Shown here piece by piece: positions 1,138 through 53,602 of a stretch of DNA of 64,000 nucleotides. Below the pieces are notes generated by a model that did not search any database, was not told the origin of the DNA, and saw nothing but the letters and a program-made list of their open reading frames with translations. This DNA is from Trueperaceae bacterium. Lineage in GTDB: Bacteria; Deinococcota; Deinococci; Deinococcales; Trueperaceae. Both the position numbers and the translations under genes were made by a program. The DNA lies in the NCBI GenBank assembly GCA_034521815.1, contig JAXHLW010000013.1, positions 512,001 through 576,000 on the forward strand, written 5' to 3'. The number at the start of each line of letters is the position of its first letter. Position 1 is the stretch's first letter.

Positions 1138-3093
1138 ATGCAGAACGTCCTGCACCTCGACCCCGAGGCGCGTGATCTCTTTCTCGAAGCCCGCGCGGCC
1201 GCCCAGCGGCCGCTGGCCCGGCTGTCCGAGCGAGACCGGCAGATCTTCGTGTTGCGCCTCGAGCGCTGGTTCCAGAACCTCGTGGACGGGCTGCGGCCGG
1301 TGTACGGTCGACGGCCCGACTTCCGGAGCTTCGTCGTCAACTTGTGCCGCGAGATGGCCGAGGCGTACGCCGAGCGACCCGAGGCGCTCAAGGAGCTCGA
1401 CCTGGAGCGGGACCTCACCCCGGACTGGTTCCAGCGCGAGTCGATGCTGGGCTACGTGTTCTACGTCGATCGCTTCGCCGGCACGCTCCGCGGCGTGCGC
1501 GAGCGCCTGGACTACCTGACGGAGCTCGGCGCGACCTACCTGCACCTGATGTCCACGCTCCAGGCGCGCGAGGGAGCGAGCGACGGCGGCTACGCGATTC
1601 GCGACTACCGCGAGGTCGAGCCGGCGCTGGGCGACCGGGACGACCTCCGTGACACCTGCACCGTGCTTCGCGAGAAGGGGGTCAGCGTCTGCATCGACCT
1701 GGTCCTGAACCACTGCGCCGATCAGCACGAGTGGGCGCGTCGTGCCTTGGCCGGCGAGCAGCGCTACCAGGACTACTTCTACATGTACGAGGACCGCGCA
1801 GCCCCCGACGCGTACGAGCGGACGCTGCCCGAGATCTTCCCGGACATGGCGCCCGGAAGCTTCACCTACCGTCCCGAGATCGACCGCTGGGTGTGGACCA
1901 CGTTCCACGAGTACCAGTGGGACCTGAACTGGTCCAACCCGCAGGTGTTCCTCGAGATCGTCAGGATCATGCTGGACCTCGCGAACCTCGGCGTCGAGGT
2001 GTTCAGGCTCGACGCCGTGGCGTTCCTGTGGAAGCGTCTCGGCACGAACTGCCAGAACCAGCCGGAGGTGCACGACCTGCTCCAGGGTCTTCGCGCCTGC
2101 AGCAAGATCGCCACGCCCGCCGTGGCGCACAAGGCGGAGGCGATCGTCAGCCCGGACGATCTGGTCCACTACTTCGGCACCGGCCGGCGCTACGGCAAGG
2201 TGAGCAACATCGCGTACCACAACAGCCTGATGGTCCACTTCTGGTCCGCCCTGGCGAGTCGCGACACGCGCTTGATGACGCACACGCTGCGCGAGTTCCC
2301 GCGGACCCCGACCTCGATCGCCTGGGGCACGTATCTCCGCGGTCACGACGACATCGGCTGGGCGATCACCGACGCGGACGCCGCGGCGGTGGGCCTGGAC
2401 GCGTTCGCGCACCGCGCGTTCCTGTCCGACTTCTACTCCGGCCGGTTCCCGGGCAGTCACGCCCGAGGTCGCGTGTTCGGGTTCAATCCGCGAACGCAGG
2501 ACCGTCGCATCAGCGGCTCGGCCGCCAGTCTGGCCGGGCTCGAGAAGGCCCTCGAGACCGGCGACGAGCGGCTGGTGGCGCTGTCGATCGAGCGGATCCT
2601 GCTGGGCCACGCGCTGATCCTGGGCTTCGGGGGCATCCCGCTGCTGTACATGGGGGACGAGCTGGGGATGCGGAACGACTACGGCTACGAGCACGAGCCG
2701 CACGAGCTCGGCGACAACCGCTGGATGCACCGGCCTCGCATGGATTGGCGCGCGGCCGAGCGGCGCGACCTGGAGGGGACCGTCGAGGAGCGCATCTTCC
2801 ACGGCATCCGGCGCATGGTGAGGGCGCGCTCGCGGACGCCGCATCTGCACGCCTCGTACGCCACCGACGTCCTGGACATCGGCCATTCGCACGTGTTCGC
2901 GTACGCCCGGCCCCATCCGCTGGGGACGATGGTGGCGCTGATGAACTTCAGCGAGCAGGTGCAGACGGTCGACGCGGAGGTGCTCACGTCGCACGGGATC
3001 GAGCAGCCGTACGACCAGATCCAGCAGGCGTTCGTCGGGATCGAGGCCGGAGAGCTGGCGTTGACGCCGTACCAGCGCTACTGGCTCATCTGA
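1138..3093 (+). CDS. Amylosucrase-like GH13 glycoside hydrolase
   Basis: SDGGYAI, DLVLNH, WVWTTFHEYQWDLN, RLDAVAFLWK (nucleophile), KAEAIV, GHDDIGW, DNRWMHRP; leaderless TAGTGT-N7-ATG. Confidence 0.85.
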   Translation: MQNVLHLDPEARDLFLEARAAAQRPLARLSERDRQIFVLRLERWFQNLVDGLRPVYGRRPDFRSFVVNLCREMAEAYAERPEALKELDLERDLTPDWFQRESMLGYVFYVDRFAGTLRGVRERLDYLTELGATYLHLMSTLQAREGASDGGYAIRDYREVEPALGDRDDLRDTCTVLREKGVSVCIDLVLNHCADQHEWARRALAGEQRYQDYFYMYEDRAAPDAYERTLPEIFPDMAPGSFTYRPEIDRWVWTTFHEYQWDLNWSNPQVFLEIVRIMLDLANLGVEVFRLDAVAFLWKRLGTNCQNQPEVHDLLQGLRACSKIATPAVAHKAEAIVSPDDLVHYFGTGRRYGKVSNIAYHNSLMVHFWSALASRDTRLMTHTLREFPRTPTSIAWGTYLRGHDDIGWAITDADAAAVGLDAFAHRAFLSDFYSGRFPGSHARGRVFGFNPRTQDRRISGSAASLAGLEKALETGDERLVALSIERILLGHALILGFGGIPLLYMGDELGMRNDYGYEHEPHELGDNRWMHRPRMDWRAAERRDLEGTVEERIFHGIRRMVRARSRTPHLHASYATDVLDIGHSHVFAYARPHPLGTMVALMNFSEQVQTVDAEVLTSHGIEQPYDQIQQAFVGIEAGELALTPYQRYWLI

Positions 3094-3101
3094 GCACGTC
3101 C

Positions 3102-3161
3102 CTCTGATCACGTGCGCTCTGATCGCGTGCGCTCTGATCGCGTCGGCTCTGAACGCGTCCG
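3102..3161. repeat. 15-bp tandem repeat x4 (CTCTGAtcgcgtgcg-like)
   Basis: ctctgatcacgtgcg/ctctgatcgcgtgcg/ctctgatcgcgtcgg/ctctgaacgcgtccg. Confidence 0.9.
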
Positions 3162-3199
3162 CGAGGCGCGCCTCCATCCGCGGCTCCGTCACCTGGGCC

Positions 3200-3229
3200 T
3201 TGTGCTGACCCGCCCGGAGAGGCTATACT
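3200..3229 (+). promoter_or_regulatory. Sigma70-type promoter of the str/S10 superoperon
   Basis: TTGTGC-N18-TATACT about 200 nt upstream of rpsL. Confidence 0.6.
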
Positions 3230-3431
3230 GCACCGGTTTGCGTCCCCCTGGCTCGCAACGACGGGTCTGGGGGCTGGTCTGTCGCATGCGCCCCGGTGGC
3301 GCAAGAGCGGGCCGAAAGCACCATCCTGAAGGGGCGGACGGTCCGTCCCACCGAACCCAGAAGCGAGGCCCGAGCCACCGCGCCGGACGTCGCATCGACG
3401 CCGGCGACGCCGAGTACGAGGAGTGATCACG

Positions 3432-3821
3432 CTGCCCACCGTCAACCAGCTGCTCCGCAAGGGGCGCAACAAACTGAGCAAGAAGAACAAGACCCCCGCC
3501 CTGAAGGGCAGCCCGCAGCGCCGTGGCGTCTGCACGGCGGTCAAGACCCAGACGCCGAAGAAGCCGAACTCCGCGCTTCGCAAGATCGCCCGCGTCCGGC
3601 TGTCCACCGGCTACGAGGTCACCGCCTACATCCCGGGCGAGAAGCACAACCTCCAGGAGCACTCGGTCGTGCTGATCCGCGGCGGCCGCGTGAAGGACCT
3701 GCCGGGCGTCCGCTACCACATCGTCCGTGGCGCGCTCGACGCTCAGGGCGTCGAGGTCGGTCGCTACGTCCAACGCAACCAGGGCCGAAGCAAGTACGGC
3801 ACCAAGAAGCCGAAGAAGTAG
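3432..3821 (+). CDS. rpsL: 30S ribosomal protein S12 (probable CTG start)
   Basis: [42 protein letters not shown] at 3418-3423 lies 8 nt before CTG at 3432. Confidence 0.97.
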
Positions 3822-3832
3822 GGGGAGCCAGA

Positions 3833-4303
3833 ATGGGTCGCAGAAGACGCGCCGAGATCCGCAAGCTCGAACCGGACCTGGTCTACGCCGACACCACCGT
3901 GACGGCGTTCGTGAACAAGCTGATGCGTGCCGGGAAGAAGAACCTCGCCAGCCGCATCTTCTACGGGGCGTGCCGCCTCATGCAGGAGCGCAGCGGCCAG
4001 GAGCCTCTCAAGGTGTTCCGCCAGGCGCTGGACAACGTCCGCCCGCGCACGGAGGTCAAGAGCCGACGCGTCGGCGGCGCCACGTACCAGGTGCCGGTCG
4101 AGGTCGGTCCGCGCCGTTCGCACTCGCTGAGCATGCGTTGGCTGGTCGCCGCGTCGGACTCGCGTCCGGAGCGCACCGCCGTCGAGCGCGTCGCGGGCGA
4201 GCTGCTGGACGCCTCGCAGGGCCGCGGCGGCGCCGTGAAGAAGAAGGAGGACGTCGAGCGCATGGCGGAGGCGAACCGAGCCTACGCCCACTACCGCTGG
4301 TAG
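3833..4303 (+). CDS. rpsG: 30S ribosomal protein S7
   Basis: MGRRRRAE..., [28 protein letters not shown]; 156 aa. Confidence 0.98.
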
Positions 4304-4319
4304 TCGCCGACAAACGATC

Positions 4320-6389
4320 ATGACGACCGAGACCAAGATCGATCTCCATATGACGCGCAACATCGGGATCGCCGCCCATATCGACGCGGGCAAGACGACC
4401 CTGACCGAGCGCATCCTGTTCTACGCCGGCCGCATCCACAAGATGGGAGAGACCCACGAGGGGGGCTCCCAGATGGACTGGATGGAGCAGGAGAAGGAGC
4501 GCGGCATCACCATCACGTCCGCGGTGACGCAGTGCGCCTGGAACGGCTACACGATCAACATCATCGACACGCCCGGCCACGTGGACTTCACGATGGAGGT
4601 CGAGCGTTCGATGCGCGTTCTGGACGCGGCCGTGGCCGTGTTCGACGCTTCGCAGGGCGTCGAGCCTCAGTCCGAGACGGTCTGGCGTCAAGCCGATCGC
4701 TACAAGGTGCCCCGCCTCGCGTTCGCGAACAAGATGGACAAGACGGGCGCCGACTTCCAGCTGGTGCTCGACTCGATGGACGAGCGCCTGGCGGCCAACG
4801 CCGTGGCGATCCAGTGGCCGATGGGCGCCGAGGACGACTTCCTGGGCGTGATCGATCTGGTCGAGCTCAAGGCCTACACGTACGGCGACGATCTCGGTCA
4901 GGACATCCGCGTCTCCGAGATTCCCGACGAGTACGTCGAGCTGGCCAACGAGAAGCGCACGCTGATGATCGAGAAGCTCGCCGACGTCGACGACGAGGTC
5001 GCGATGAGCTTCCTCGAGGGCGAAGAGATCGCCGTCGACGTGATCAAGAACGCGATTCGTCAGGGCGTCATCGATCTCGCGCTGTTCCCGGTCATGTGCG
5101 GCTCCGCGCTGAAGAACAAGGGCGTGCAGCGGGTGCTGGACGCGGTGACCTACTACCTGCCGAGCCCCCTCGACGTGCCGCCGATCCACGGCGTGCTCGA
5201 GGACGGCACGGAAGAGGTCCGGCCGGCCGACGCCGACGCGCCCACCTCCGCTCTGGCGTTCAAGATCGCCGCGGATCCGTACGTGGGCCGCCTGACCTTC
5301 GTCCGGGTGTACTCGGGCGTGCTCGAGGCCGGCAGCTACGTGCTGAACGTGTCGAAGGGCAAGCGCGAGCGCATCGGGCGGCTGCTCAAGATGCACGCCA
5401 ACAGCCGTGAAGAGGTGGACCGCATCTCCGCAGGCGATCTGGGCGCCGTGATCGGTCTGAAGGACACCAGCACCGGCGACACGCTGTCGCACGTCGACCA
5501 CCCGATCGAGCTCGAGTCGATCGAGATCCCCGAGCCGGTCATCACGGTCGCCATCGAGCCCGTCTCGAAGGCGGACCAGGACAAGCTGGGCGCGGGGCTC
5601 GCGAAGCTCGCCGAGGAGGATCCGACGTTCCGCGTCGAGACCGACCCGGAGACCGGACAGACGAAGATCTCGGGCATGGGCGAGCTGCACCTCGACATCC
5701 TCGTCGACCGGCTCAAGCGCGAGTTCAAGGTCAACGCCCACGTCGGCGCGCCCCAGGTGGCGTACCGCGAGACGATCACCCGCCACGTCGAGGTCGAGGG
5801 CAAGTTCGTCCGCCAGACCGGTGGCCGCGGCCAGTACGGCCACGTCAAGATCAAGGCCGAGCCGCGCGAGCGGGGCGAGGGGTTCGAGTTCGAGAACTCC
5901 GTCGTCGGCGGGACGATCCCGAAGGACTTCATCCCCGCCGTCCAGAAGGGCGTCGAGGAGTCGATGCAGAGCGGTCCGTTGCTCGGCTTCCCGATCGTGG
6001 ACATGAAGATCTCGCTCTACGACGGCTCCTACCACGAGGTCGACAGCTCCGAGATGGCGTTCAAGATCGCCGCCTCGATGGCCGTGCGCAACGCGATGGA
6101 GAAGGGTGGCGCGGTCGTGCTGGAGCCGGTGATGCGCGTCGAGGTCGTCACGCCCGAGAACTACATGGGCGACGTCATCGGCAACCTGAACTCCCGGCGC
6201 GGCCAGATCCAGGGCATGGAGCCTCGCGGCAACGCGCAGGTCGTCACCGCCCACGTTCCGCTGGCCGAGATGTTCGGCTACGCGACCGACCTCCGCAGCC
6301 TGAGTCAGGGCCGCGCGACCTTCACGATGTTCCTCGACCACTACACCGCGGTGCCCAAGGGCATCCAAGAAGAGCTCACCAAGAAGTAA
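4320..6389 (+). CDS. fusA: Elongation factor G
   Basis: [52 protein letters not shown]. Confidence 0.99.
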
Positions 6390-6417
6390 TCCCCAGGGAT
6401 TCAGAGGAGAAGCTGTC

Positions 6418-7635
6418 ATGGCGAAAGCTACGTTCAACCGTACGAAGCCGCATGTGAATGTTGGGACGATTGGGCATGTGGATCATGGGAAGACGACGTT
6501 GACGGCGGCGATTACGTTTGCTGCTGCGGCGATGGATCCGTCGGCGACGACGATGTCGTATGACCAGATTGATAAGGCGCCGGAGGAGAAGGCGCGTGGG
6601 ATTACGATTAATACGTCGCATGTGGAGTATCAGACGGAGTCGCGTCATTACAGTCATGTGGATTGTCCGGGGCATGCGGATTATGTGAAGAACATGATTA
6701 CGGGTGCTGCGCAGATGGATGGTGCGGTGTTGGTGGTGTCGGCTGCGGATGGTCCGATGCCGCAGACGCGTGAGCACATTTTGTTGGCTCGGCAGGTGGG
6801 GGTTCCTTACATTTCCGTGTTTTTGAACAAGGTGGACATGGTGGATGATGAGGAGTTGTTGGAGCTTGTGGAGATGGAGGTTCGTGAGCTTTTGTCTAGT
6901 TACGAGTTTCCTGGGGATGATGTGCCTGTGGTGTCTGGGTCTGCGTTGAAGGCGTTGGAGGCGTTGTCGGCGAATCCGAATGTGCAGCGTGGTGAGGATG
7001 CGTGGGTGGATAAGGTTTGGGAGCTTCTTGATGCGGTGGATGCGTATATTCCGACGCCTGAGCGGGATGTGGATAAGCCGTTTTTGATGCCTGTCGAGGA
7101 TGTGTTCACGATTACGGGTCGTGGGACGGTGGCGACGGGTCGTGTTGAGCGGGGTGTTGTGAAGACGGGGGATGAGGTTGAGGTTGTTGGTCTTGTCGGC
7201 GACGCGGAAGACGGTTGTGACGGGTGTGGAGATGCATCGGAAGACGTTGGATAGTGGGATGGCTGGGGATAATGTCGGGGTTTTGCTTCGTGGTGTGGCG
7301 CGGGATGATATCGAGCGTGGGCAGGTGCTTGCGAAGCCGGGTTCGATTACGCCGCATACGAGGTTTTCTGGGAGTGTGTACATTTTGAGGAAGGAGGAGG
7401 GGGGCGTCATTCGGCGTTTTTTGCGGGGTATCGTCCTCAGTTTTACTTTCGGACGACGGATGTGACGGGGGTTTGTACGTTGCCGTCGGATGTGGAGATG
7501 GTGATGCCGGGGGATAATGTGGAGTTGTCGGTGGAGTTGATCAAGCCGATTGCGATGGAGGAGGGTCTTCGGTTCGCGATTCGTGAGGGTGGTCGTACGG
7601 TGGGTGCGGGCGTCGTGACGGGAATCCAGGAGTAA
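6418..7635 (+). CDS. tuf: Elongation factor Tu, with two compensating frameshifts (+1 at ~7192-7195, -1 in G run 7399-7404), probably sequence errors
   Basis: [21 protein letters not shown]; reading across both shifts gives [16 protein letters not shown]...[24 protein letters not shown]...[15 protein letters not shown] (405 aa). Confidence 0.95.
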
Positions 7636-22381: not shown

Positions 22382-23548
<1,167 letters not shown>

Positions 23549-23627
23549 GCCCCAGCATACCGGCGCCGGACGCGCCGCCCCTCGCGCGCTGCGGGACGGC
23601 AGCGGCGAGGCCTGCGATACTGGACCG

Positions 23628-25307
23628 GTGACACCCCCCGTCCCCATGGAGGAGAGCGTCCGCGCGGCGCTGCGACGCCTCGCTCCCGAGGCGCGGCGCG
23701 TCCTGCTGGCCGTCTCGGGCGGCAGCGACTCGGTCGCCCTGCTACGCGCCCTTCACGGCGCACCGAGGCTCGAGGTGGTGGTCGCGCACCTCGACCACGG
23801 GCTCCGCGACGACGCCGAGGAGGACGCCGCCTGGGTCCAGGCCACCTGCGCCGGTCTGAACGTGCCGTTCGTGCTGGAATCGGCGCCGATCGGGGAGGTC
23901 GCCAGCCGCGAGGGTCGCAACGTCGAAGAGGTCGGGCGCACCGTCCGCTACGCGTTCCTGGCGCGCATCGCCCGCCAGCGCGGCTGCGACGTCGTCGCGA
24001 CCGGGCACACCCGCAGCGACCAGGCCGAGTCGGTGCTGCTGCAGCTCCTTCGCGGCGCCGCGCACCCGCGCGGCATCGAGCCGCGTCGGGGCCGGGTCGT
24101 GCGCCCGCTGCTGGAGCTGTCCAAGGACGACCTGCGCGGCTGGCTGGACGGGCTGGGCCAGGGCTGGCGCGAGGACGCCTCGAACCGCGACATGAGCAGG
24201 GACCGCGCCTGGATCCGTCTTCAGGTGATGCCGCGGCTCGAGCGGCGCAGGCCCGGCGCGGTGGCCCGCCTGGCGCGGTTCGGCCATCTGCAGCGCGAGC
24301 AGGCCGACCTGCTCGCGGACGAGGCTCGCCGCCGCTTCGGCGACGGTCCCCTGGCTCGGGACGCCCTGCTGGCCGCGCCCCCCGCGCTGCAGCGCGAGGC
24401 GCTGGCCCGGCTGATCCGGGCCGCCGGCGGGGAGGCCGAGAGTCTCCACCTCGACGCCATCCTCGCCGCGCTTCGCGGCGAGGGTGCGATCCGGCGCGAC
24501 CTGCCCGGTGGCGTGCGGGTCCGCGTCCTGCCCGACGTGGTGGACGTCGTTCGGCCTCACGACGGTCGCCCTGGGCCCGACCGGCCCGCGGTGTCCGAGC
24601 GGACGATCCGGACGCCCGAGGAGCTGCCCGCAGGACTGCCCGCCAGCCTGCTGGACGACGGGCCCTGGACGCTCCGGACGCCGCGTCCGGGCGATCGGAT
24701 CCGCCTGCCGGGCGGCCGCAGGAAGGTCTCGGACGTGCTGACCGACGCGAAGGTCCCACGCGAGGACCGGCCGGCGATCGGCGTGCTGGCCCGCGGCGAC
24801 GAGGTGGCGTGGATCGAGGGCACGGCCGTCGCCGCCGGCCTCGACGAGGCGGCAGCCGATCCCGACCGGCCGTGGATGCGCCGCGCCTTGGAGCTCGCCG
24901 ACGAGGCGGCCGAAGCGGGCGAGCTGCCCGTCGGCGCGGTCGTGGTGCGCGACGGACGGATCGTCGGCGAGGGCAGGAACGTGCGCGAGTCCGCCGCCGA
25001 CCCGAGCGCGCACGCCGAGATCGAGGCGATGCGCGACGCGGCGACGCGCGAGGGCGACTGGCGTCTGGCGGACGCCACCCTGTACGTCACCCTGGAGCCG
25101 TGCCCGATGTGCGCCGGCGCCGTGCTGCAGAGCCATCTGGGCCGTGTGGTGTGGGGCGCCGCGAACCGCCGCGACGGCGCGTTCGGAAGCGTGGTGGATC
25201 TCGCCGCCGGACCGTGGAAGCGGGTGCCGGAGCGTCGCGGCGGCGTGCTGGCCCGCGACGCGGCCCGGCGGCTCGAACGGTTCTTCGCCGCCAGGCGCGA
25301 CGCCTGA
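23628..25307 (+). CDS. tilS: tRNA(Ile)-lysidine synthetase fused to C-terminal tRNA adenosine deaminase (TadA) domain
   Basis: [10 protein letters not shown]-loop, [17 protein letters not shown]-terminal [19 protein letters not shown]; start chosen from GATACT-N6-GTG. Confidence 0.92.
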
Positions 25308-43626: not shown

Positions 43627-45309
43627 ATGACGCCGCTCTGGATGGTCCTCGTGTCGCTGGTCGCAGGCTGGGCGATCGGCTCGGCGCCGCTGGGCGCGTG
43701 GTGGATCCGCCGTGCCGCGGGGCGCGATCCGCGCGACCTGAACCCGTCCCTGCTGGGCGTCGAGAACGTGTTCCGGCTGCTCGGACCGCCCGTCGCGGCG
43801 GTCGGCTTCATCCTCGACGTGCTCAAGGGCGCGGTGGCGGTGGTGATCGCGCCCGCGGCCGGCGCGGCGGCGGTGGGCGTCCTGGCGGGCCACGTCCTTC
43901 CGCCCCCCTGGCCCGGCGACGCGCGCGCCCCGCGAGGCCGCGGCAACGGCGTGCTGGCGGGGGCGCTGACGGCGCTGGTCGCTGCGGGCGACATGCCGTT
44001 CCTGGCGGCGGGCGCGGGGGCGGCCGTGTACGCCGCGGCGTTGGCGCAGTGGGGGTTCGCGACGCCGGCGACGCTGCTGGGGCTGCTGACGATGCTGATG
44101 TGGCCCGGTGCCCCCGTGGGCGTCTCCGCGGGCTGGCTGGCGCTGTTGACGGTGCGCGGCCTTCCGTCGCTGGCGCGCATCGCGGACGGCACCGAGCCAC
44201 GGCTGGGCGATCCTCCCCCGGTGCGGGGTCTGGCACCGGGCCGGGTGCGCGCGGCGTTCATGATCCATCCGATGACGCTGGACGACATCTGGCAGGTCCC
44301 GAGCCAGCGCTGGGTGCATCTCCTTCACCGGCGGGGCTGGCTGCCCGAGCCCGCGCTTCGGCGGGTCTTGCCGTGGCTGCGTCCCCAGCTCCACGGGATC
44401 GTGCGCGGCGTCGAGCTGGCCGACGGACGGACGCTGGAGGTGGTGCTGATCGGCGGTCCGATGCTTCCCGACCAGATCCGCGCCGACCCGGCGACGGCGA
44501 CCCGAATGGCGATCCGGGGCGCCCAGCTGGCCCGCGAGATGGGCGCCGAGGCGTTCGGTCTGGGCGCGTTCTGGTCCACGGTGGGCGACAAGGGACGGAG
44601 GGTCCAGGAGGCGGTGCCGGACCTGCCCGTCACGCACGGTGGCAGCTACACCGCCGCGACCGTCGGAGCGGCGATCCCCGGTCTGCTGGAGCGGTTCCGC
44701 GAGGAGGGCGGGACCTTGGCGCGCAGCACCGCCGCGGTCGTGGGCGCCAACGGCGTGGTCGCGTTCGGCGTCGCGCGCACGCTGGCGGAGCACGTCGGCG
44801 AGCTGATCCTGATCGGGACCGATCCGGTTCGCCTGGAACGGAGCGCCGCGACGCTACGGCACAAGCATCCGACGCTGGAGGTCCGCACCTCGACCGACCC
44901 GGCGGACGTGGCTGCGGCCGACCTGGTGTTCACGGCCACCAGCGATCCGGGCGTCGTCATCCGGCCGGAGCATGTCCGGCCGGGCGCCTGGATCTACGAT
45001 CTGGGTCGTCCGGCCGACGTCGATCCCGCCGTCCGCGAGGTGCCCGGCGTGCAGCTCGTGCCCGGCGGCGTGGTTCGGCCGCCCGGGCGAAGCGTGAGCG
45101 ACCTGGACCTGCACTTCGGCGACGGGCTGGTGCCCGCCTGCCTGGCGGAGACGATGATCCTGGCGGCCAGCGGCGAGCCGCACCGCGCCAAGACCGGTGG
45201 CACGGCCCGGGCGGCCGACGTGGCCTGGTTCCTGCAGGAGGGGCAGCGCCTGGGGTTCGAGATCGTGACGCGCGACGACCGGGTGGTGCGCGCCGAGGTC
45301 GTGCCTTGA
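43627..45309 (+). CDS. PlsY-like membrane domain fused to an acyl-ACP-reductase-like NAD(P)-binding domain
   Basis: N-terminus: GSAP, LDVLKG, LAGHVLP, GTEPRLG; C-terminus: AFMIHP, GLGAFWSTVG, THGGSYTA, VVGANG, DLGRP, PACLAETM. Confidence 0.7.
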   Translation: MTPLWMVLVSLVAGWAIGSAPLGAWWIRRAAGRDPRDLNPSLLGVENVFRLLGPPVAAVGFILDVLKGAVAVVIAPAAGAAAVGVLAGHVLPPPWPGDARAPRGRGNGVLAGALTALVAAGDMPFLAAGAGAAVYAAALAQWGFATPATLLGLLTMLMWPGAPVGVSAGWLALLTVRGLPSLARIADGTEPRLGDPPPVRGLAPGRVRAAFMIHPMTLDDIWQVPSQRWVHLLHRRGWLPEPALRRVLPWLRPQLHGIVRGVELADGRTLEVVLIGGPMLPDQIRADPATATRMAIRGAQLAREMGAEAFGLGAFWSTVGDKGRRVQEAVPDLPVTHGGSYTAATVGAAIPGLLERFREEGGTLARSTAAVVGANGVVAFGVARTLAEHVGELILIGTDPVRLERSAATLRHKHPTLEVRTSTDPADVAAADLVFTATSDPGVVIRPEHVRPGAWIYDLGRPADVDPAVREVPGVQLVPGGVVRPPGRSVSDLDLHFGDGLVPACLAETMILAASGEPHRAKTGGTARAADVAWFLQEGQRLGFEIVTRDDRVVRAEVVP

Positions 45310-46579: not shown

Positions 46580-48772
46580 TCAGGCGGCTCGGCGAGCTCC
46601 TCTGAGCGAGTCGCGCTGCCGGCCCTTGAACCAGACCACCAGCGGCGAGAGGATGAAGATGCTCGAGTACGTCCCGACGCCGATGCCGATCAGCAGGGTG
46701 GCCGAGAAGTCGCGCAGCACGCTCCCCCCGAACAGCAGCAGGGCGATGACCGGCAGCAGGGTGGTGCCGGAGGTCATCAGGGTGCGCGACAGGGTCTGGT
46801 TGACCGACAGGTCCACGATCTCCTCGTAGCTGCGGTCGCGGACCTTGCGCAAGTTCTCGCGGATCCGGTCGGCGATGATGATCGAGTCGTTCAGCGAGTA
46901 GCCGACGACGAACAGCATCGCGGCCAGGACCGGAATGCTGAACTGGGCGTTCAGCAGGTCGATCACGCCCAGCGTGATGCCGACGTCGTGGATCGCGGCG
47001 ATGACCGCGGCGATCGCCACGATCCAGGTCGGCCAGAAGCGCCACGACACGTACAGCAGGATCAGCGCCAGCGCCACGCCGACGGCGTACAGCGCACCGC
47101 GGCGCAGGTCGGCCCCGACGGCGGGCCCGACGAAGTCGGCCTGCAGCAGCGAGGCGTTCAGGGCGCTCGCCAGGTCGGTGGGGAACTGGTCGGCGACGTC
47201 CTCGTTCTCGGTCAGGCCCACGCGGACGCTCATCAGGTTCTCGCCCAGCACGTCGTCCTGCACCTCGACCACGGTCGCTTCGTCGCCCGACACGCCTTCG
47301 AACCCGAGCGCGTCGATCGCGGACCGGACGCCGCCGACGGTCAGCGGCTCCTCGCCCTGCATCAGCACCGCGGTGCCGCCGGTGAAGTCGGTGGAGAGCT
47401 GCAGCCCCTTGATCGCCACGGTGGCGATCGCCCCCAGCGCCAGCACGGCCGAGATCGCCATGACGACCGGGGCACGCCGGACGAAGCGGAAGCGGAGGCC
47501 GGTCGCGTAGAACCCTTTGGGCATCATCGGACGGCGGATCTTGGTGCTGGCCAGGTCCAACATCCAGGGGACGACCACGGTGTTGACGAACACCGCGGCG
47601 ACGATCCCGATCGCCAGCGTGATCGCGAAGCCCCGCACCGGACCGGCGGTGTACTGGTACAGCGTTCCGGCGGCCAGCAGGGTCGTGACGTTGGCGTCGA
47701 TGATGGCCGAGAGCGAGTTGCCGAAGCCGTGCTTCATCGACAGCCTGAGCCCGCGTCCGGCGCGGAGCTCCTCCTTGATGCGCTCGAAGCTGATCACGTT
47801 GCCGTCGACGGCGGCTCCGATGGTCAGCACCAGGCCGGCCAGGCCGGGCAGCGTCAGCGCGGCGCCCAGGCCGGCGAGCACGCCGAACACGAACAGCAGC
47901 GCCAGCATGACGCCGACGGTGAGAATCCCGCCGAACAACGGACCGTAGTACGCCAGGATCACAACGATCACCGCCGCGCCGCCGATCAGCGCCGCGTTGC
48001 GGCCGGCCCGGATCGAGTCCTGGCCCAGCGTCGGCCCGATCGAGCGGACCTCCTGGACCTGGAGGTTGATCGGCAGGCTGCCGCTGCGGAGCACCAGCGC
48101 GATGTCGGTCGCCTCGTCCAAGCTCTCGATGCCGGTGATCTGGCCCGAGTCGCTGATGCGCGACTGCAGCGTGGGGGCGGTGATGATGGTCCCGTCCAGC
48201 ACGATCGCCATCCGGCGGCCGGTGTTGCTGCCGGTGAAGTCGCCGAAGTCGGACGCGTTCTCGCGCTTGATCTCGAAGAACACGGCCGGCCCCATCGAGG
48301 CGCCGCCGACCCGCTCGAAGTCCGCGCTGGCGGTGCGGACGATCTCGCCCGTGAAGGCGGTCTCCTCGAGCTGCTCCAAGGTGAGCTGCGAGGTCAGCAG
48401 ACTGTTCGCCTCGGGCCGCACGAGCGCGAACTCGAGCTGCGCCTGCTGGCCGATCAGGTCCAGCGCGCGGTCCTGATCGCTGGAGGTGAGCCCGGGCAGC
48501 TCGACGATGATGCGATCGCCGCCGCTGGTCTGGATCAGCGGCTCGGCGACGCCGAACTCGTTCACGCGGTTCTCGATGATGTTGCGGGCGGCCTGCAGAT
48601 CCTGAGGTGCGGGGTCGGGCAGCTCGGACTGCAGCACGACGCGGAGGCCGCCCTGGAGGTCGAGGCCGAGCTTCAGGGCGTCCGCGTCAGGCGTCCACGG
48701 TTTCCAGAGGTAGGCCAGCGAGGCGAGGATGGCGGCCAGCACCAGCAGGCCGGTGAACAATCGTTGGGTCAT
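46580..48772 (-). CDS. secDF: Fused protein translocase subunit SecDF
   Basis: LGLDLQGG, LVLRSGSLP, AVDGNV..FERIKEE, DFTGG, GYSLNDSIII.DRIRE. Confidence 0.96.
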   Translation of the reverse strand: MTQRLFTGLLVLAAILASLAYLWKPWTPDADALKLGLDLQGGLRVVLQSELPDPAPQDLQAARNIIENRVNEFGVAEPLIQTSGGDRIIVELPGLTSSDQDRALDLIGQQAQLEFALVRPEANSLLTSQLTLEQLEETAFTGEIVRTASADFERVGGASMGPAVFFEIKRENASDFGDFTGSNTGRRMAIVLDGTIITAPTLQSRISDSGQITGIESLDEATDIALVLRSGSLPINLQVQEVRSIGPTLGQDSIRAGRNAALIGGAAVIVVILAYYGPLFGGILTVGVMLALLFVFGVLAGLGAALTLPGLAGLVLTIGAAVDGNVISFERIKEELRAGRGLRLSMKHGFGNSLSAIIDANVTTLLAAGTLYQYTAGPVRGFAITLAIGIVAAVFVNTVVVPWMLDLASTKIRRPMMPKGFYATGLRFRFVRRAPVVMAISAVLALGAIATVAIKGLQLSTDFTGGTAVLMQGEEPLTVGGVRSAIDALGFEGVSGDEATVVEVQDDVLGENLMSVRVGLTENEDVADQFPTDLASALNASLLQADFVGPAVGADLRRGALYAVGVALALILLYVSWRFWPTWIVAIAAVIAAIHDVGITLGVIDLLNAQFSIPVLAAMLFVVGYSLNDSIIIADRIRENLRKVRDRSYEEIVDLSVNQTLSRTLMTSGTTLLPVIALLLFGGSVLRDFSATLLIGIGVGTYSSIFILSPLVVWFKGRQRDSLRGARRAA

Positions 48773-48886
48773 CGGGGCTCCCTATCGACGCGTCGTCGTC
48801 GAGGCGTCGTCATGTCGGTGGTGTTCAGAGCTGTGGTGTTCAGAGCTGTTCGGGATGCGGGCGTGTCGTGCCATGCCGCCCGACCC

Positions 48887-49309
48887 TCAGCCGCCTTCCA
48901 AGTTCCTTCGGGCGAACCACCGTTGCGCGCGGGTTCGCACGGCCCCGCGCGATCCCAGGAGGTGCCTGCCGGCCGGCGTGGCGGGCCGGGTCACGGCCGC
49001 GCGCCGCACCGTGCCGGCGAGCCGGTGATGGCTGGCCGGCGCGCTCGCGGACGACACCGGGGCCGTCCACAGCAGCGTCGTGGGCGTGGCGGTCAGGCCC
49101 GGATCGGCCGGCCCGTCGGCCGGCCGGTCGGCTCGGCTCGCGTCCGGGTGCAGCTGCAGCCCGGCCAGCGCCACCGACGTCGCCAACAGGAGCGCGACCG
49201 CCAGCGTCACCGTCGCCGCCACCATCGCCGCCACCGCGACGCCGGACGGGTCGCGGGATCGCACGCAGGGGCGCGATCGAGCGGGGCGGGGAGGACGGGC
49301 GCGGATCAC
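48887..49309 (-). CDS. Upstream ORF of secDF with TM/signal segment; candidate translation-arrest monitor peptide
   Basis: TAGGAT-N7-GTG leaderless start; Arg-rich N-terminus, ~30-aa hydrophobic stretch, low-complexity linker, C-terminus AQRWFARRNLEGG*; ends 114 nt before secDF. Confidence 0.65.
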   Translation of the reverse strand: MIRARPPRPARSRPCVRSRDPSGVAVAAMVAATVTLAVALLLATSVALAGLQLHPDASRADRPADGPADPGLTATPTTLLWTAPVSSASAPASHHRLAGTVRRAAVTRPATPAGRHLLGSRGAVRTRAQRWFARRNLEGG

Positions 49310-49374
49310 GCGCGCCATCCTACCCCGCCCCGCGGGAGCGACGGTCGGTCCGTCGCGCTCCCGGGTCCGCGCGC

Positions 49375-51231
49375 TCAGGCGAGCGGGATCTCGACCATCT
49401 CGTAGACCTCGATCACGTCGCCTTCCTGCACGTTGTCGTAGTTCTGCAGGTTCACGCCGCACTCGAACCCCTGCGTCACCTCGCGCACGTCCTCCTTGAA
49501 GCGCTTGAGGCCGGCGACCGTGCCCTTGTACACCTCTTTGCCGTCGCGGGTGACGCGCGCCTTGGCGTTGCGCCTGAGCACGCCGTTCGTGACGTACGAG
49601 CCGGCGATGTTGCCGCTCCGGGGGACGCGGATGACCGCGCGGACCTCGGCGTGCCCGATGACCTTCTCTTCGAACTCGGGCTCGATCTGGCCGCGGATCA
49701 TCCGCTGCACGTCCTCGATCAGCTGGTAGATGATCTTGTACGTCTTGAGCGGAATGCCCTGGCGCTCGGCGGACTTCTTGACCGCGCCGGAGGGGTTGAC
49801 GCCGAAGGTGATCACCTGGGCGTCGGCGGTGGAGGCCAGCAGCAGGTCGGACTCGGTCGGGGCGCCGACCTCGGCCAGCATGATGTCGAGGTCGACTTCC
49901 TCGGTCGCCTCGGACTCGCGCTCCAGCACGCCCTTGATCGCTTCGAGCGTGCCTTGCGTGTCGGCCCTCAGCACCAGCGGAATCACCGTCTTGGTGGTCT
50001 TGCCGAACAGATCGGCCAGCGTGATGTTCTTGCGCCCGATCGCCTCGCGCTCGATCGTCTCGCGCTCGTCTTGGCGCGTTTCGGCGAGCTCCTTGGCGGC
50101 GGCCTCGTTCGGTGCCGCCTCGACCAGCGCGCCGGCCTGCGGCTGGCTGCTGAAGCCGAGGATCTGGACCGGCGTCGAAGGACCGGCCTCCTTCAGCGTC
50201 TTGCCGGTGTGGTCGGTGAGCCGGCGGATCTTGGCCCACGCCTCGCCCGAGACGACGTAGTCCGCGACGTGGAGCGTGCCGCGCTGCACCAGCACCGTCG
50301 ACAGCACGCCGGCCTGCTTGTCGAGGATCGACTCGATCACGACGCCCTTGGCGCGTCCGCGCGGATCGGCACGAAGGTCCTCGACCTCGGCGACCAGCGC
50401 GATCATCTCGAGCAGGTCGGGAATCCCCTCGCCCGTCTCGGCGCTGATCGGCACGGTGATCGTCTCGCCGCCGTAGTCCTCGGGCACCAGCTCGACCTGC
50501 ATCAGGTCGCGCTTGACGCGATCGGGGTCGGACTGCGGCAGGTCGATCTTGTTGATCGCCACCAGGATCGGCACGCCGGCGGCCTTGGCGTGGGCGATCG
50601 CCTCGCGCGTCTGCGGCATGATGCTGTCGTCCGCGGCGATGACGATCACGGCGATGTCGGTGGCGTTGGCGCCGCGCTGGCGGATGGCGGTGAACGCCTC
50701 GTGGCCTGGCGTGTCGAGGAAGGTGATCGGCCCGTGCACCGTGTCGGCGATGTACGCGCCGATGTGCTGGGTGATCCCGCCCGCCTCGCCCGCGGCGACC
50801 CGCGTCTTGCGGATATGGTCCAGCAGGCTGGTCTTGCCGTGGTCGACGTGGCCCATGACGGTCACGACCGGCGCCCTGAGCGGGAACGGCTGGCCGTCCT
50901 CGTCGAGCTCGGGACCGGCGTCGGCCGTGGCGACCGGCTCGGCCGGCTCGCCGGGCGAATCGGTCGTGGCGGCTGCGGCGGCCTCGTCCTGGTCCGCCTC
51001 GTCCGCGGCGGCCTGATCCGGGCTGGCCTCGTCGGGGCTGGCCTCGGCGCTGGAGGACTCGCCGTCACGGTCGGCCTCGACCAGGTCACGCACGGTGCTG
51101 GCGGTGTCGGCGTCCAAGGTGCTGGAGTGCGACTTGTACTCGACCCCCATGTCGTCCAGGATGGCGAGCAGCTCCTTGGATTCGACGCCTAGGTCTTTCG
51201 CGAGTTGGTAGATCCGGACTTTCGTGGGCAT
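49375..51231 (-). CDS. infB: Translation initiation factor IF-2 (short form)
   Basis: [48 protein letters not shown]. Confidence 0.98.
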
Positions 51232-53572: not shown

Positions 53573-53602
53573 ATCCTAGCGCTTCGCGGCCGCCAGGTAC
53601 AA
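53573..53602 (-). promoter_or_regulatory. Sigma70 promoter of rimP-nusA-infB
   Basis: Minus strand TTGTAC-N18-TAGGAT. Confidence 0.55.

Follow-up and report, generated by a model that had tools for sequence, protein, structure and literature searches.

The gap between infB and secDF in a 64,000-nucleotide (nt) stretch of a Trueperaceae genome (GenBank assembly GCA_034521815.1, contig JAXHLW010000013.1, positions 512,001 to 576,000 of the forward strand; hereafter the window) contains an upstream open reading frame (uORF) that is confirmed as a real gene, under selection as a protein far beyond what chance would produce. On comparative and structure-prediction grounds, we propose that this small gene is translated into a protein-export monitoring substrate that acts through ribosome arrest, a reading to which we give a probability of about 55%.

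The selection became visible in comparison with the metagenome-assembled genome (MAG) contig L001, the sole relative read as DNA. Over the last 23 codons of the uORF, hereafter the tail, the two sequences have 13 identical codons, 10 synonymous ones and no amino-acid difference, against 59 identical, 15 synonymous and 44 amino-acid-changing codons among codons 1-120 (Fisher p = 9.6e-6 for this contrast). By the Nei-Gojobori method, the proportion of synonymous differences (pS) in the tail is 0.60 and that of nonsynonymous differences (pN) 0.02, and the ratio of nonsynonymous to synonymous rates (dN/dS) in the rest of the frame is about 0.6-0.75; for infB and secDF in the same two genomes, pS is about 0.2 and pN 0.04-0.05. 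Among the tail swaps are CGA/AGG and AGG/CGA for Arg and TTG/CTC for Leu, which keep the residue only in the uORF frame. This frame keeps 23 of 23 tail residues, and the five other frames 12-19 of 23-24. Differences that are exclusively synonymous, together with an identity specific to one frame, lead us to conclude that the tail is selected as a peptide rather than as RNA. Codons 1-13 are the opposite case, being constrained at the nucleic-acid level: every base is identical between the window and L001 (13 of 13 codons).

The gene and its protein family

The stretch is 70% GC, and infB, the uORF and secDF all lie on the minus strand. The infB stop at 49375 and the secDF ATG at 48772 leave a gap of 602 nt. 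Within it, an earlier reading of the window from its letters alone (the sequence-only reading) had placed a 140-codon frame at 49309-48887, and the frame is there. It is nested in a 450-residue open frame (48887..50239) that overlaps infB out of frame. The same reading had called the gene hidden, which holds insofar as it is buried in that listed 450-residue frame; protein collections, however, already contain a 140-residue call from the GTG (P0002), and the uORF is overlooked rather than hidden. A second in-frame start, an ATG absent from the earlier account, lies three codons 5' of the GTG, at 49318, and residue numbers are counted from it here. The main features of the gene and its target are as follows.

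48887..49309, minus strand: uORF, from GTG 49309 to TGA 48889-48887, 140 codons; 143 codons from the alternative ATG 49318.
49151..49249, minus strand: hydrophobic helix, residues 24-56, predicted by AlphaFold2 with a local confidence score (predicted local distance difference test, pLDDT) of about 94.
48959..49150, minus strand: linker, residues 57-120, predicted disordered and fast-evolving (dN/dS about 0.7) except for a patch at residues 72-84.
48890..48958, minus strand: conserved C-terminal segment, residues 121-143 (LGSRGAVRTRAQRWFARRNLEGG), the candidate arrest sequence, invariant in 11 of 11 sequences.
48890-48931, minus strand: family-wide core R130-G143, with a short helix predicted at residues 130-140.
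48887..48889, minus strand: TGA stop directly after Gly-Gly, where the ribosome is proposed to stall with this codon in its A site; TGA is followed by G in the window and in L001.
46580..48772, minus strand: fused secDF, 730 amino acids, with SecD_SecF_C, SecDF_P1_head, SecD_1st and Sec_GG domains; the presumed regulated gene.

The predicted peptide is built from three parts. Its best 19-residue hydropathy window spans residues 27-45 (mean Kyte-Doolittle value, KD, 2.59), and the net charge is +7 in the Arg-rich flank before the helix and -2 over the 20 residues after it, a pattern that predicts an N-in/C-out orientation. The helix, which ends in A-L-A-G-L-Q-L (invariant in the close clade), may serve as a signal anchor or be cleaved off as a signal. 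In an AlphaFold2 run on the 23-sequence family alignment, residues 57-120 of the linker had block-mean pLDDT values of 45-55, with no structure predicted, and the C-terminal helix had a mean pLDDT of 88 over residues 131-140. Charge, hydropathy and AlphaFold2 bear out the Arg-rich N-terminus, hydrophobic segment and disordered linker of the sequence-only reading, and the C-terminal tail that it had quoted, AQRWFARRNLEGG followed by the stop, is present.

Base composition fits a coding frame in both genomes. The GC content by codon position is 0.76/0.70/0.90 in the window and 0.81/0.70/0.91 in the L001 orthologue (GC content at third positions, GC3, 0.913), and the reference GC3 is 0.945-0.96 in infB, secDF and nusA. 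At 70% GC, the length of the frame by itself says little. The order of genes in L001 (infB 2416-4257, uORF 4310-4756, secDF 4934-7126) matches that of the window. A genome scan with two peptide patterns of the close clade (TRAQRWFA; ATS[LV]ALAGLQ) confirmed 1 locus from 53 pattern matches; since both patterns derive from that clade, the scan would pass over any members with tails of the RAQRWYARRLLEGG type in GTDB genomes, among them that of Truepera radiovictrix.

Codon usage in the tail is peculiar in its own right. The last 23 codons of the window (48890-48958) are rich in the rare codons CGA, AGG, TTG, CAA, GAA and GGA, and those of L001 (4685-4753) contain the rare codons GTA, AGG, CGA and GAA. 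The codon adaptation index of the tail is 0.43 in the window and 0.51 in L001, compared with a reference-gene mean of 0.775, which places both at about the 4th-5th percentile. In each genome, rare Arg codons encode R137-R138, their order being exchanged between the two. Such codons could reflect relaxed codon selection or a deliberate slowing before the stop.

Homologues were collected with a word-seeded search of 5.8 billion proteins, which returned 10 sequences at 60-81% identity, and with two profile searches. The first, of all 1.84 billion representatives, gave 5 clusters at E <= 0.001, four of them new and far more divergent, and the second brought the total to 22 non-self homologues of 95-154 amino acids. 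None of the 22 has a name beyond "hypothetical protein", and the label of one gives a Trueperaceae MAG as its source. The family alignment (n = 23) joins the window peptide to these 22 homologues and excludes P0002, the collections' copy of the window protein itself. The best structure matches of the neighbouring SecDF are those of Thermus thermophilus and Deinococcus radiodurans, 3AQP (E 1.2e-189) and 5XAM (E 2.7e-173), which, with the member named from a Trueperaceae MAG, makes the proposed placement in Deinococcota plausible.

Conservation in this alignment is concentrated at the C-terminus. Mean column identity is 0.65 for residues 1-13, 0.37 for 14-26, 0.57 for 27-56 (the transmembrane segment), 0.43 for 57-71, 0.74 for 72-84, 0.54 for 85-127 and 0.88 for 128-143. 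Eleven positions are invariant in 23 of 23 sequences (D72, G74, R130, Q132, R133, A136, R137, R138, L140, G142 and G143), nine of them within the last 14 residues. Every protein ends at Gly-Gly (23/23), in the family motif R-x-Q-R-[WL]-[FY]-A-R-R-[NL]-L-[ED]-G-G-stop, which distant homologues keep at 29-50% overall identity. Among the 22 full-length members (P0023, a 95-residue fragment, stands outside this set), each has a hydrophobic 19-residue window with a mean KD of 1.58-2.59 and a positive N-flank, and the end of this window lies 80-107 residues from the C-terminus. The check that the sequence-only reading had set in advance, an alignment from the stop codon, gave the outcome it foresaw: a conserved ending (E/D)GG-stop in 23/23, a retained transmembrane segment and a poorly conserved linker.

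The terminal motif differs from known arrest motifs of the RAPP type. A motif R/Q/H-A/G-P-P/G is missing from the window peptide and from 18 other members (19/23). The four remaining members (P0014, P0019, P0022 and P0023), which form one subclade, have RAPP 18 residues before the C-terminus; two sisters of this subclade have RRPP or RQPP at the same site, and the window clade has SRGAV there. In the subclade, RAPP may act as an additional arrest element or represent an ancestral one, or it may simply follow from an Arg/Ala/Pro-rich composition.

No known family accounts for these proteins. Pfam, NCBIfam and PDB sequence searches with the 23 members gave chance-level matches only, and the hits to GSK-3_bind (E 0.062, 1/23), to an anti-sigma model (E 0.0016, 1/23) and to a BON-domain chain (E 0.5) were dismissed as such. 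The YajC profile was matched neither by the window peptide in Pfam at E <= 0.01 nor by any of the 23 members at E <= 0.1. In the ESM Atlas, the best feature score was 0.85 (lead level 0.9), to unnamed Actinomycetota clusters, and structural template-modelling scores were <= 0.40.

The start region and the spacer

The uORF begins within a striking structure, and a set of smaller elements lies between its stop and secDF.

49317..49322, minus strand: TAGGAT, a -10-like TANNNT hexamer 7 nt 5' of the GTG; it is probably the promoter that gives rise to a leaderless uORF-secDF mRNA.
49281..49333, minus strand: near-perfect hairpin or palindrome of 53 nt, 23 base pairs (stems of 11, 7 and 5), loop UGAUC, starting 42 nt after the infB stop.
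48858..48882, minus strand: stop-proximal hairpin CGGGCG/CGCCCG with a 13-nt loop (z-score -1.5; 16 of 200 shuffles as good).
48818..48849, minus strand: C-rich, G-poor core with a 15-nt tandem repeat in 2.1 copies.
48786..48809, minus strand: hairpin proximal to the Shine-Dalgarno sequence (SD), ending 2 nt before it (z -2.2, 3 of 200 shuffles as good; z -1.2 in L001).
48778..48783, minus strand: secDF SD, AGGGAG, 5 nt before ATG 48772, kept in L001 and predicted mostly unpaired.

The arrangement TAGGAT-N7-GTG described in the sequence-only reading is found as such, with TAGGAT at 49322-49317, then 7 nt, then the GTG. TAGGAT is the sole TANNNT across the infB-secDF gap in both genomes (602 nt in the window, 676 nt in L001), and neither has a TANNNT between the uORF and secDF. 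From this we infer that the uORF and secDF form one transcription unit. In D. radiodurans, TANNNT is reported about 6-7 bp 5' of the ORFs of nearly a third of genes, as the -10 element of leaderless genes, a pattern described as general in the phylum Deinococcota (PMC12340547); for D. deserti, 60% leaderless mRNAs are reported (PMC4007540). As for the statement that many genes of the window use it, 9 of 45 high-GC3 ORFs have a TANNNT 5-9 nt before a start candidate, a count made over any of the first six in-frame start candidates per ORF and without a chance control. The exact TAGGAT occurs three times in the window. A second copy (53573-53578, minus strand) lies just 5' of rimP-nusA-ylxR-infB (GCTAGGATGGTGAAC), in the same TAGGATGG-start arrangement as at the uORF, which suggests that this operon, too, may be transcribed from a leaderless or near-leaderless promoter.

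The 53-nt hairpin, missed by the earlier account, holds the TAGGAT box, the ATG 49318 in its stem and the GTG 49309 at its loop. Its folding energy is -54.1 kcal/mol (z -5.6), and none of 200 shuffles folds as well. It is 100% identical in L001 (4295-4347), within a fully identical block of 72 nt, and of the in-frame starts 5' of the transmembrane segment, the two genomes have only the ATG and the GTG in common. The hairpin has no U-tract, and an intrinsic-terminator consensus scan of 48400-49800 gave no hit; a consensus sigma-70 promoter scan of the same interval also gave none, a scan that is ill-suited to the promoters of this phylum. An Rfam scan of 48500-49600 at E <= 1 returned no match. 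We consider the hairpin a probable terminator-like structure for the rimP-nusA-ylxR-infB transcript that overlaps the promoter and start of the uORF: the infB transcript would end at the hairpin, and the uORF-secDF mRNA would start inside it, at about 49309. Because a transcript carrying the whole hairpin would lock away both conserved starts, translation is plausible only from a transcript that begins within it, and a leaderless start would be necessary. The leaderless translation proposed in the sequence-only reading is thereby reached again, here from the hairpin-enclosed starts and the TAGGAT box.

Across the spacer between the uORF stop and secDF (114 nt in the window, 177 nt in L001), conservation is low outside the SD-proximal hairpin and the SD. 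Both spacer hairpins of the earlier account are in the minimum-energy fold, but neither stands clearly beyond shuffled sequence (z -1.5 and -2.2). The stop-proximal site of L001 is occupied by another hairpin, 3-4 nt beyond the stop (z -0.8). The outer stem of the SD-proximal hairpin, GACGC/GCGUC, is kept in L001, and the inner stem is UCG/CGA in the window and GUCUC/GAGAC in L001; two sequences cannot establish covariation. The description of the spacer as C/A-rich is borne out by its composition (A 27, C 43, G 33, T 11), and its 78-nt core has a C-minus-G value at the 98th percentile of minus-strand windows. In L001 (4752-4837), 5.7 copies of a related 15-nt unit form an array that begins at the last codon and stop codon of the uORF, and the repeat units of the two genomes share a core resembling CTGA[AG]CACC. 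That these repeats bind Rho or a protein is speculation.

Proposed arrest at termination and its rivals

The proposed mechanism would run as follows. Transcription from the TAGGAT box would give a leaderless mRNA that begins at or near GTG 49309 and runs on into secDF. The Arg-rich N-terminus and the hydrophobic helix would take the nascent chain to the Sec/YidC machinery, in the N-in/C-out orientation. At the end of the ORF, about 85 residues would lie between the helix and the peptidyl-transferase centre, with the invariant last 14-23 residues in the exit tunnel and UGA in the A site. There, the peptide ending in Gly-Gly would slow or block its own release, and ongoing translocation would pull on the chain and relieve the stall; with export impaired, the stall would be prolonged and secDF would be expressed more strongly. 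Conservation that runs exactly to the stop codon suggests that such an arrest would occur at termination. In a eukaryotic assay, release was slowest after glycine among the last residues tested, and the rates measured there are reported to correlate with bacterial rates for release factors 1 and 2 (RF1 and RF2; r 0.98 and 0.94) taken from Pierson et al. 2016 (PMC10802582). A Gly-Gly ending is mechanistically plausible for slow termination.

A possible coupling of the stall to secDF was modelled by folding the spacer. Pairing was forbidden over a 28-nt ribosome footprint at the stop, for three upstream lengths in two genomes, and the accessibility of the SD stayed flat or fell under this simulated stall, so that a classical stem-melting device is not supported. 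SD unmasking was rejected as a supported mechanism, and the hairpin-gated SD of the sequence-only reading finds no support in folding, with or without a stall. This result weighs against the classical SD device and not against regulation by another route. The alternative that we prefer, at low confidence, is a block of Rho loading on the C-rich spacer after the stop, as in TnaC.

TnaC, of the E. coli tryptophanase operon, stalls with UGA in the A site and has a critical Trp about 10 residues upstream. The stalled ribosome adjoins a C-rich unstructured spacer, blocks Rho and permits downstream transcription. Likewise, W134 of the window peptide lies 9 residues before G143, the stop is UGA and the spacer is C-rich, which makes TnaC a possible model for the coupling. 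TnaC differs in being cytosolic, 24 residues long and without a transmembrane segment, in ending in Pro and in responding to free tryptophan instead of export. A role of Rho in the window is speculation from the C-over-G skew. Taken with all its parts at once, the scheme appears improbable to us: a termination arrest at GG-UGA (read by RF2) by a basic, Trp-containing tunnel helix; translation only from a leaderless mRNA whose promoter and start lie in the infB terminator hairpin; transcriptional control of a housekeeping secDF through a Rho-loading site, masked within the C-rich repeat spacer as in TnaC, and not by SD unmasking; and stalling of Thermus- or Deinococcus-type ribosomes.

Several observations weigh against an export-monitoring arrest peptide. 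The genomic context covers 2 of the 23 members, the infB-uORF-secDF synteny being present in 2/2 loci read as DNA, and the family is small, with 5 clusters at 50% identity among 1.84 billion representatives. The conserved patch D-P-G-L-T-A-x-P/E-T-x-L-L (residues 72-84, 49067-49105; D72 and G74 invariant), just outside the membrane, is about 60-70 residues from the C-terminus and would be beyond the range of the exit tunnel at the stall; conservation is not limited to the tunnel length, which suggests an additional function outside the ribosome. The fold of the whole spacer is no better than that of shuffles (z -0.02 in the window, -0.29 in L001), single hairpins reaching -0.8 to -2.2. The probability that the SD is unpaired is 0.52-0.78 free and 0.42-0.66 with the simulated stall in the window, and 0.61-0.62 in both states in L001. 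The C-over-G skew, which is the one ground for the Rho idea, is weak in L001 (C/G 1.05 overall). The published secDF monitors ApdA and ApdP sit 5' of a second paralogue, secDF2 (PMC10987492); the window secDF lies in a core region. Moreover, we infer the stalling, its release by translocation and the control of secDF throughout. What stood of the earlier proposal of a translocation-sensing arrest peptide is its comparative signature, which is complete and strong (transmembrane segment, variable linker, invariant C-terminus, adjoining secDF), and what fell away is the hairpin-gated SD.

The uORF might instead encode an ordinary small single-pass membrane or exported protein, with a tail that serves as a binding or recognition motif and with no programmed arrest. 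The tail could bind SecDF, as a YajC-like accessory, or be the ligand of a periplasmic PDZ-type protease, and the adjacency of secDF would then reflect shared function or a chance operon structure. We regard this as somewhat unlikely. YajC is a small membrane protein encoded just 5' of secDF in many bacteria, the gene here is real and conserved, its second patch (D-P-G-L-T...T-L-L) lies beyond the tunnel range, and no SD-sequestering structure is predicted. On the other hand, there is no YajC, Pfam or NCBIfam match and no folded domain is predicted (block-mean pLDDT 45-55 for residues 61-120). Most of the protein, the transmembrane segment included, evolves at a dN/dS of about 0.6-0.75, and only the last 23 codons are frozen. 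A very basic tail with conservation stopping at the stop codon in 23/23 is, furthermore, the typical pattern of a stop-type arrest.

The same ending invites comparison with the GG ends of ubiquitin-like and ThiS/MoaD-type modifiers, and (E/D)-G-G after basic residues does end all 23 members. That it is a conjugation or processing handle of this kind nevertheless seems very improbable, as no beta-grasp or other fold is predicted and no family matches. The charge pattern would place the C-terminus outside the cytoplasm, away from ATP-dependent activating enzymes, and the neighbours are infB and secDF, with no E1-like gene adjoining. Hardly any weight, finally, is left for a shadow ORF of a GC-rich non-coding spacer whose conservation would be that of an RNA or DNA element. 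At 70% GC a long open frame is nothing unusual, and codons 1-13, identical at every base, coincide with the hairpin. The frame-specific conservation of the tail (last 23 codons: 10 synonymous differences, none in amino acids, and identity lost in every other frame) already contradicts this explanation, and the GC3 of 0.90-0.91, the Rfam result and a motif kept in distant homologues at 29-50% identity count against it as well.

Known arrest peptides and the place of this family

Fujiwara et al. 2024 surveyed 30,175 genomes for uORFs that satisfy four sequence criteria (PMC10987492). The first, as the survey describes it, is a small uORF annotated without function 5' of secA, secDF or yidC and oriented like it; in the window and L001, infB, the uORF and secDF lie in this order on one strand, and the protein belongs to no Pfam or NCBIfam family (context known for 2 of 23 members). 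The second and third are an N-terminal signal or transmembrane segment and a C-terminus conserved among homologues, and the fourth is a distance of >30 residues from the signal to the end of the conserved sequence (PMC10987492). The helix predicted by AlphaFold2 at residues 24-56 and a hydropathy window of KD >= 1.58 in 22/22 full-length members correspond to the second, the nine invariant residues among the last 14 in 23/23 to the third, and the distance of 80-107 residues to the fourth. Two further in silico tests came out differently: no classical SD-sequestering stem-loop was found, and a RAPP-like or RQH motif is absent from the window peptide, being present in 4/23 members, 18 residues from the end.

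Stop-type peptides combine conservation to the last residue with an arrest that requires the stop codon. In the window family, conservation reaches the last residue in 23/23 and the stop is TGA in both DNA sequences, and the terminal motif is unlike all three published classes. In toeprinting experiments, the stop codon occupies the A site when NSP-stop and NAP-stop peptides stall, and most likely also in the case of DGMK-stop (PMC10987492). As reported there, these peptides are likewise small uORFs 5' of secDF or secA, with an N-terminal localisation signal, conservation to the C-terminus and a narrow lineage (PMC10987492). They differ in ending in Pro (NAP, NSP) or Lys (DGMK), in coming from Bacteroidota or Clostridia and in having been shown experimentally to arrest. 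The window family, known here from its sequence, ends in (E/D)-G-G, belongs to a Trueperaceae-like lineage and has no sequence similarity to them.

LudP, described in a 2026 preprint, offers another comparison. Encoded 5' of secDF in Lacrimispora, it has a 15-residue arrest element that folds into an alpha-helix inside the tunnel; if a stop codon is introduced at the site, LudP can arrest at termination too. Its position directly 5' of secDF, its genus-level clade and its compact element recall the window family, with its predicted helix at 130-140 and its 14-residue core. Unlike that family, LudP arrests mainly during elongation, needs Asp133 in a DGEK-type motif, and acts on Gram-positive ribosomes only; the two are not related in sequence. 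The RAPP-like peptides (ApdA, ApdP, ApcA, SecM and the RQH family) have in common with the window family a signal or transmembrane segment, a spacer of >30 residues, a conserved C-terminus and a position 5' of secDF, secA or yidC (PMC10987492), whereas the invariant element here is RxQRW[FY]ARRxL[ED]GG. The absence of a predicted SD-sequestering stem-loop at the window locus also sets it apart from VemP and MifM. Encoded 5' of secDF2 and of yidC2, respectively, these are force-sensitive monitors, MifM with a transmembrane anchor and no cleaved signal, that arrest during elongation and melt a stem-loop sequestering the SD.

We found no literature report of this motif, of any arrest peptide in Deinococcota or of a uORF at secDF in Deinococcus. 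In the searched part of the supplements of PMC10987492, NLEGG, EGG-stop, QRWFARR and QRWYARR had no match and ARRNL had one, unrelated; LEGG occurs 10 times, and the 3 occurrences inspected are all in the column of downstream proteins. In the same searched part, "Deinococ" and "Truepera" appear in the genome list only and not in the tables of classified peptides. The survey covered Trueperaceae genomes and, as far as its searched tables go, lists no class from Deinococcota (PMC10987492); its reliance on annotated coding sequences and on cluster size can explain how it would have missed this family. The kind of gene is already known, and the motif and the lineage appear to be new.

Elsewhere in the window, two open frames each carry domains of two enzymes. 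The first (23457-25304, plus strand) has TilS domains (PP-loop ATP_bind_3, TilS_C) followed by a cytidine/deoxycytidylate deaminase domain (residues 470-581), and may be a TilS-deaminase fusion or two genes sharing a frame. The second (43627-45306, plus strand), of 560 amino acids, has a PlsY-type glycerol-3-phosphate acyltransferase domain (14-159) and a shikimate dehydrogenase domain (362-477), and is either an unusual domain pairing or two genes in one frame.

If the uORF peptide does stall ribosomes, Deinococcota would gain their first reported secretion-monitoring arrest peptide, and the terminal motif RxQRW[FY]ARRxL[ED]GG-stop would join the short list of peptides that arrest at termination. 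A stall at Gly-Gly-UGA would fit the slow release after glycine and would provide a natural substrate for the study of RF2 inhibition by a nascent chain. Thermus- and Deinococcus-type ribosomes are standard material in ribosome structural work, and a peptide native to the phylum may work on them, which would be favourable for structures. The case also illustrates how a narrow family can escape a survey that relies on annotation and cluster size. With no obvious stem-loop masking the SD, the route from stall to secDF in these bacteria may depart from the scheme of SecM, MifM and VemP.

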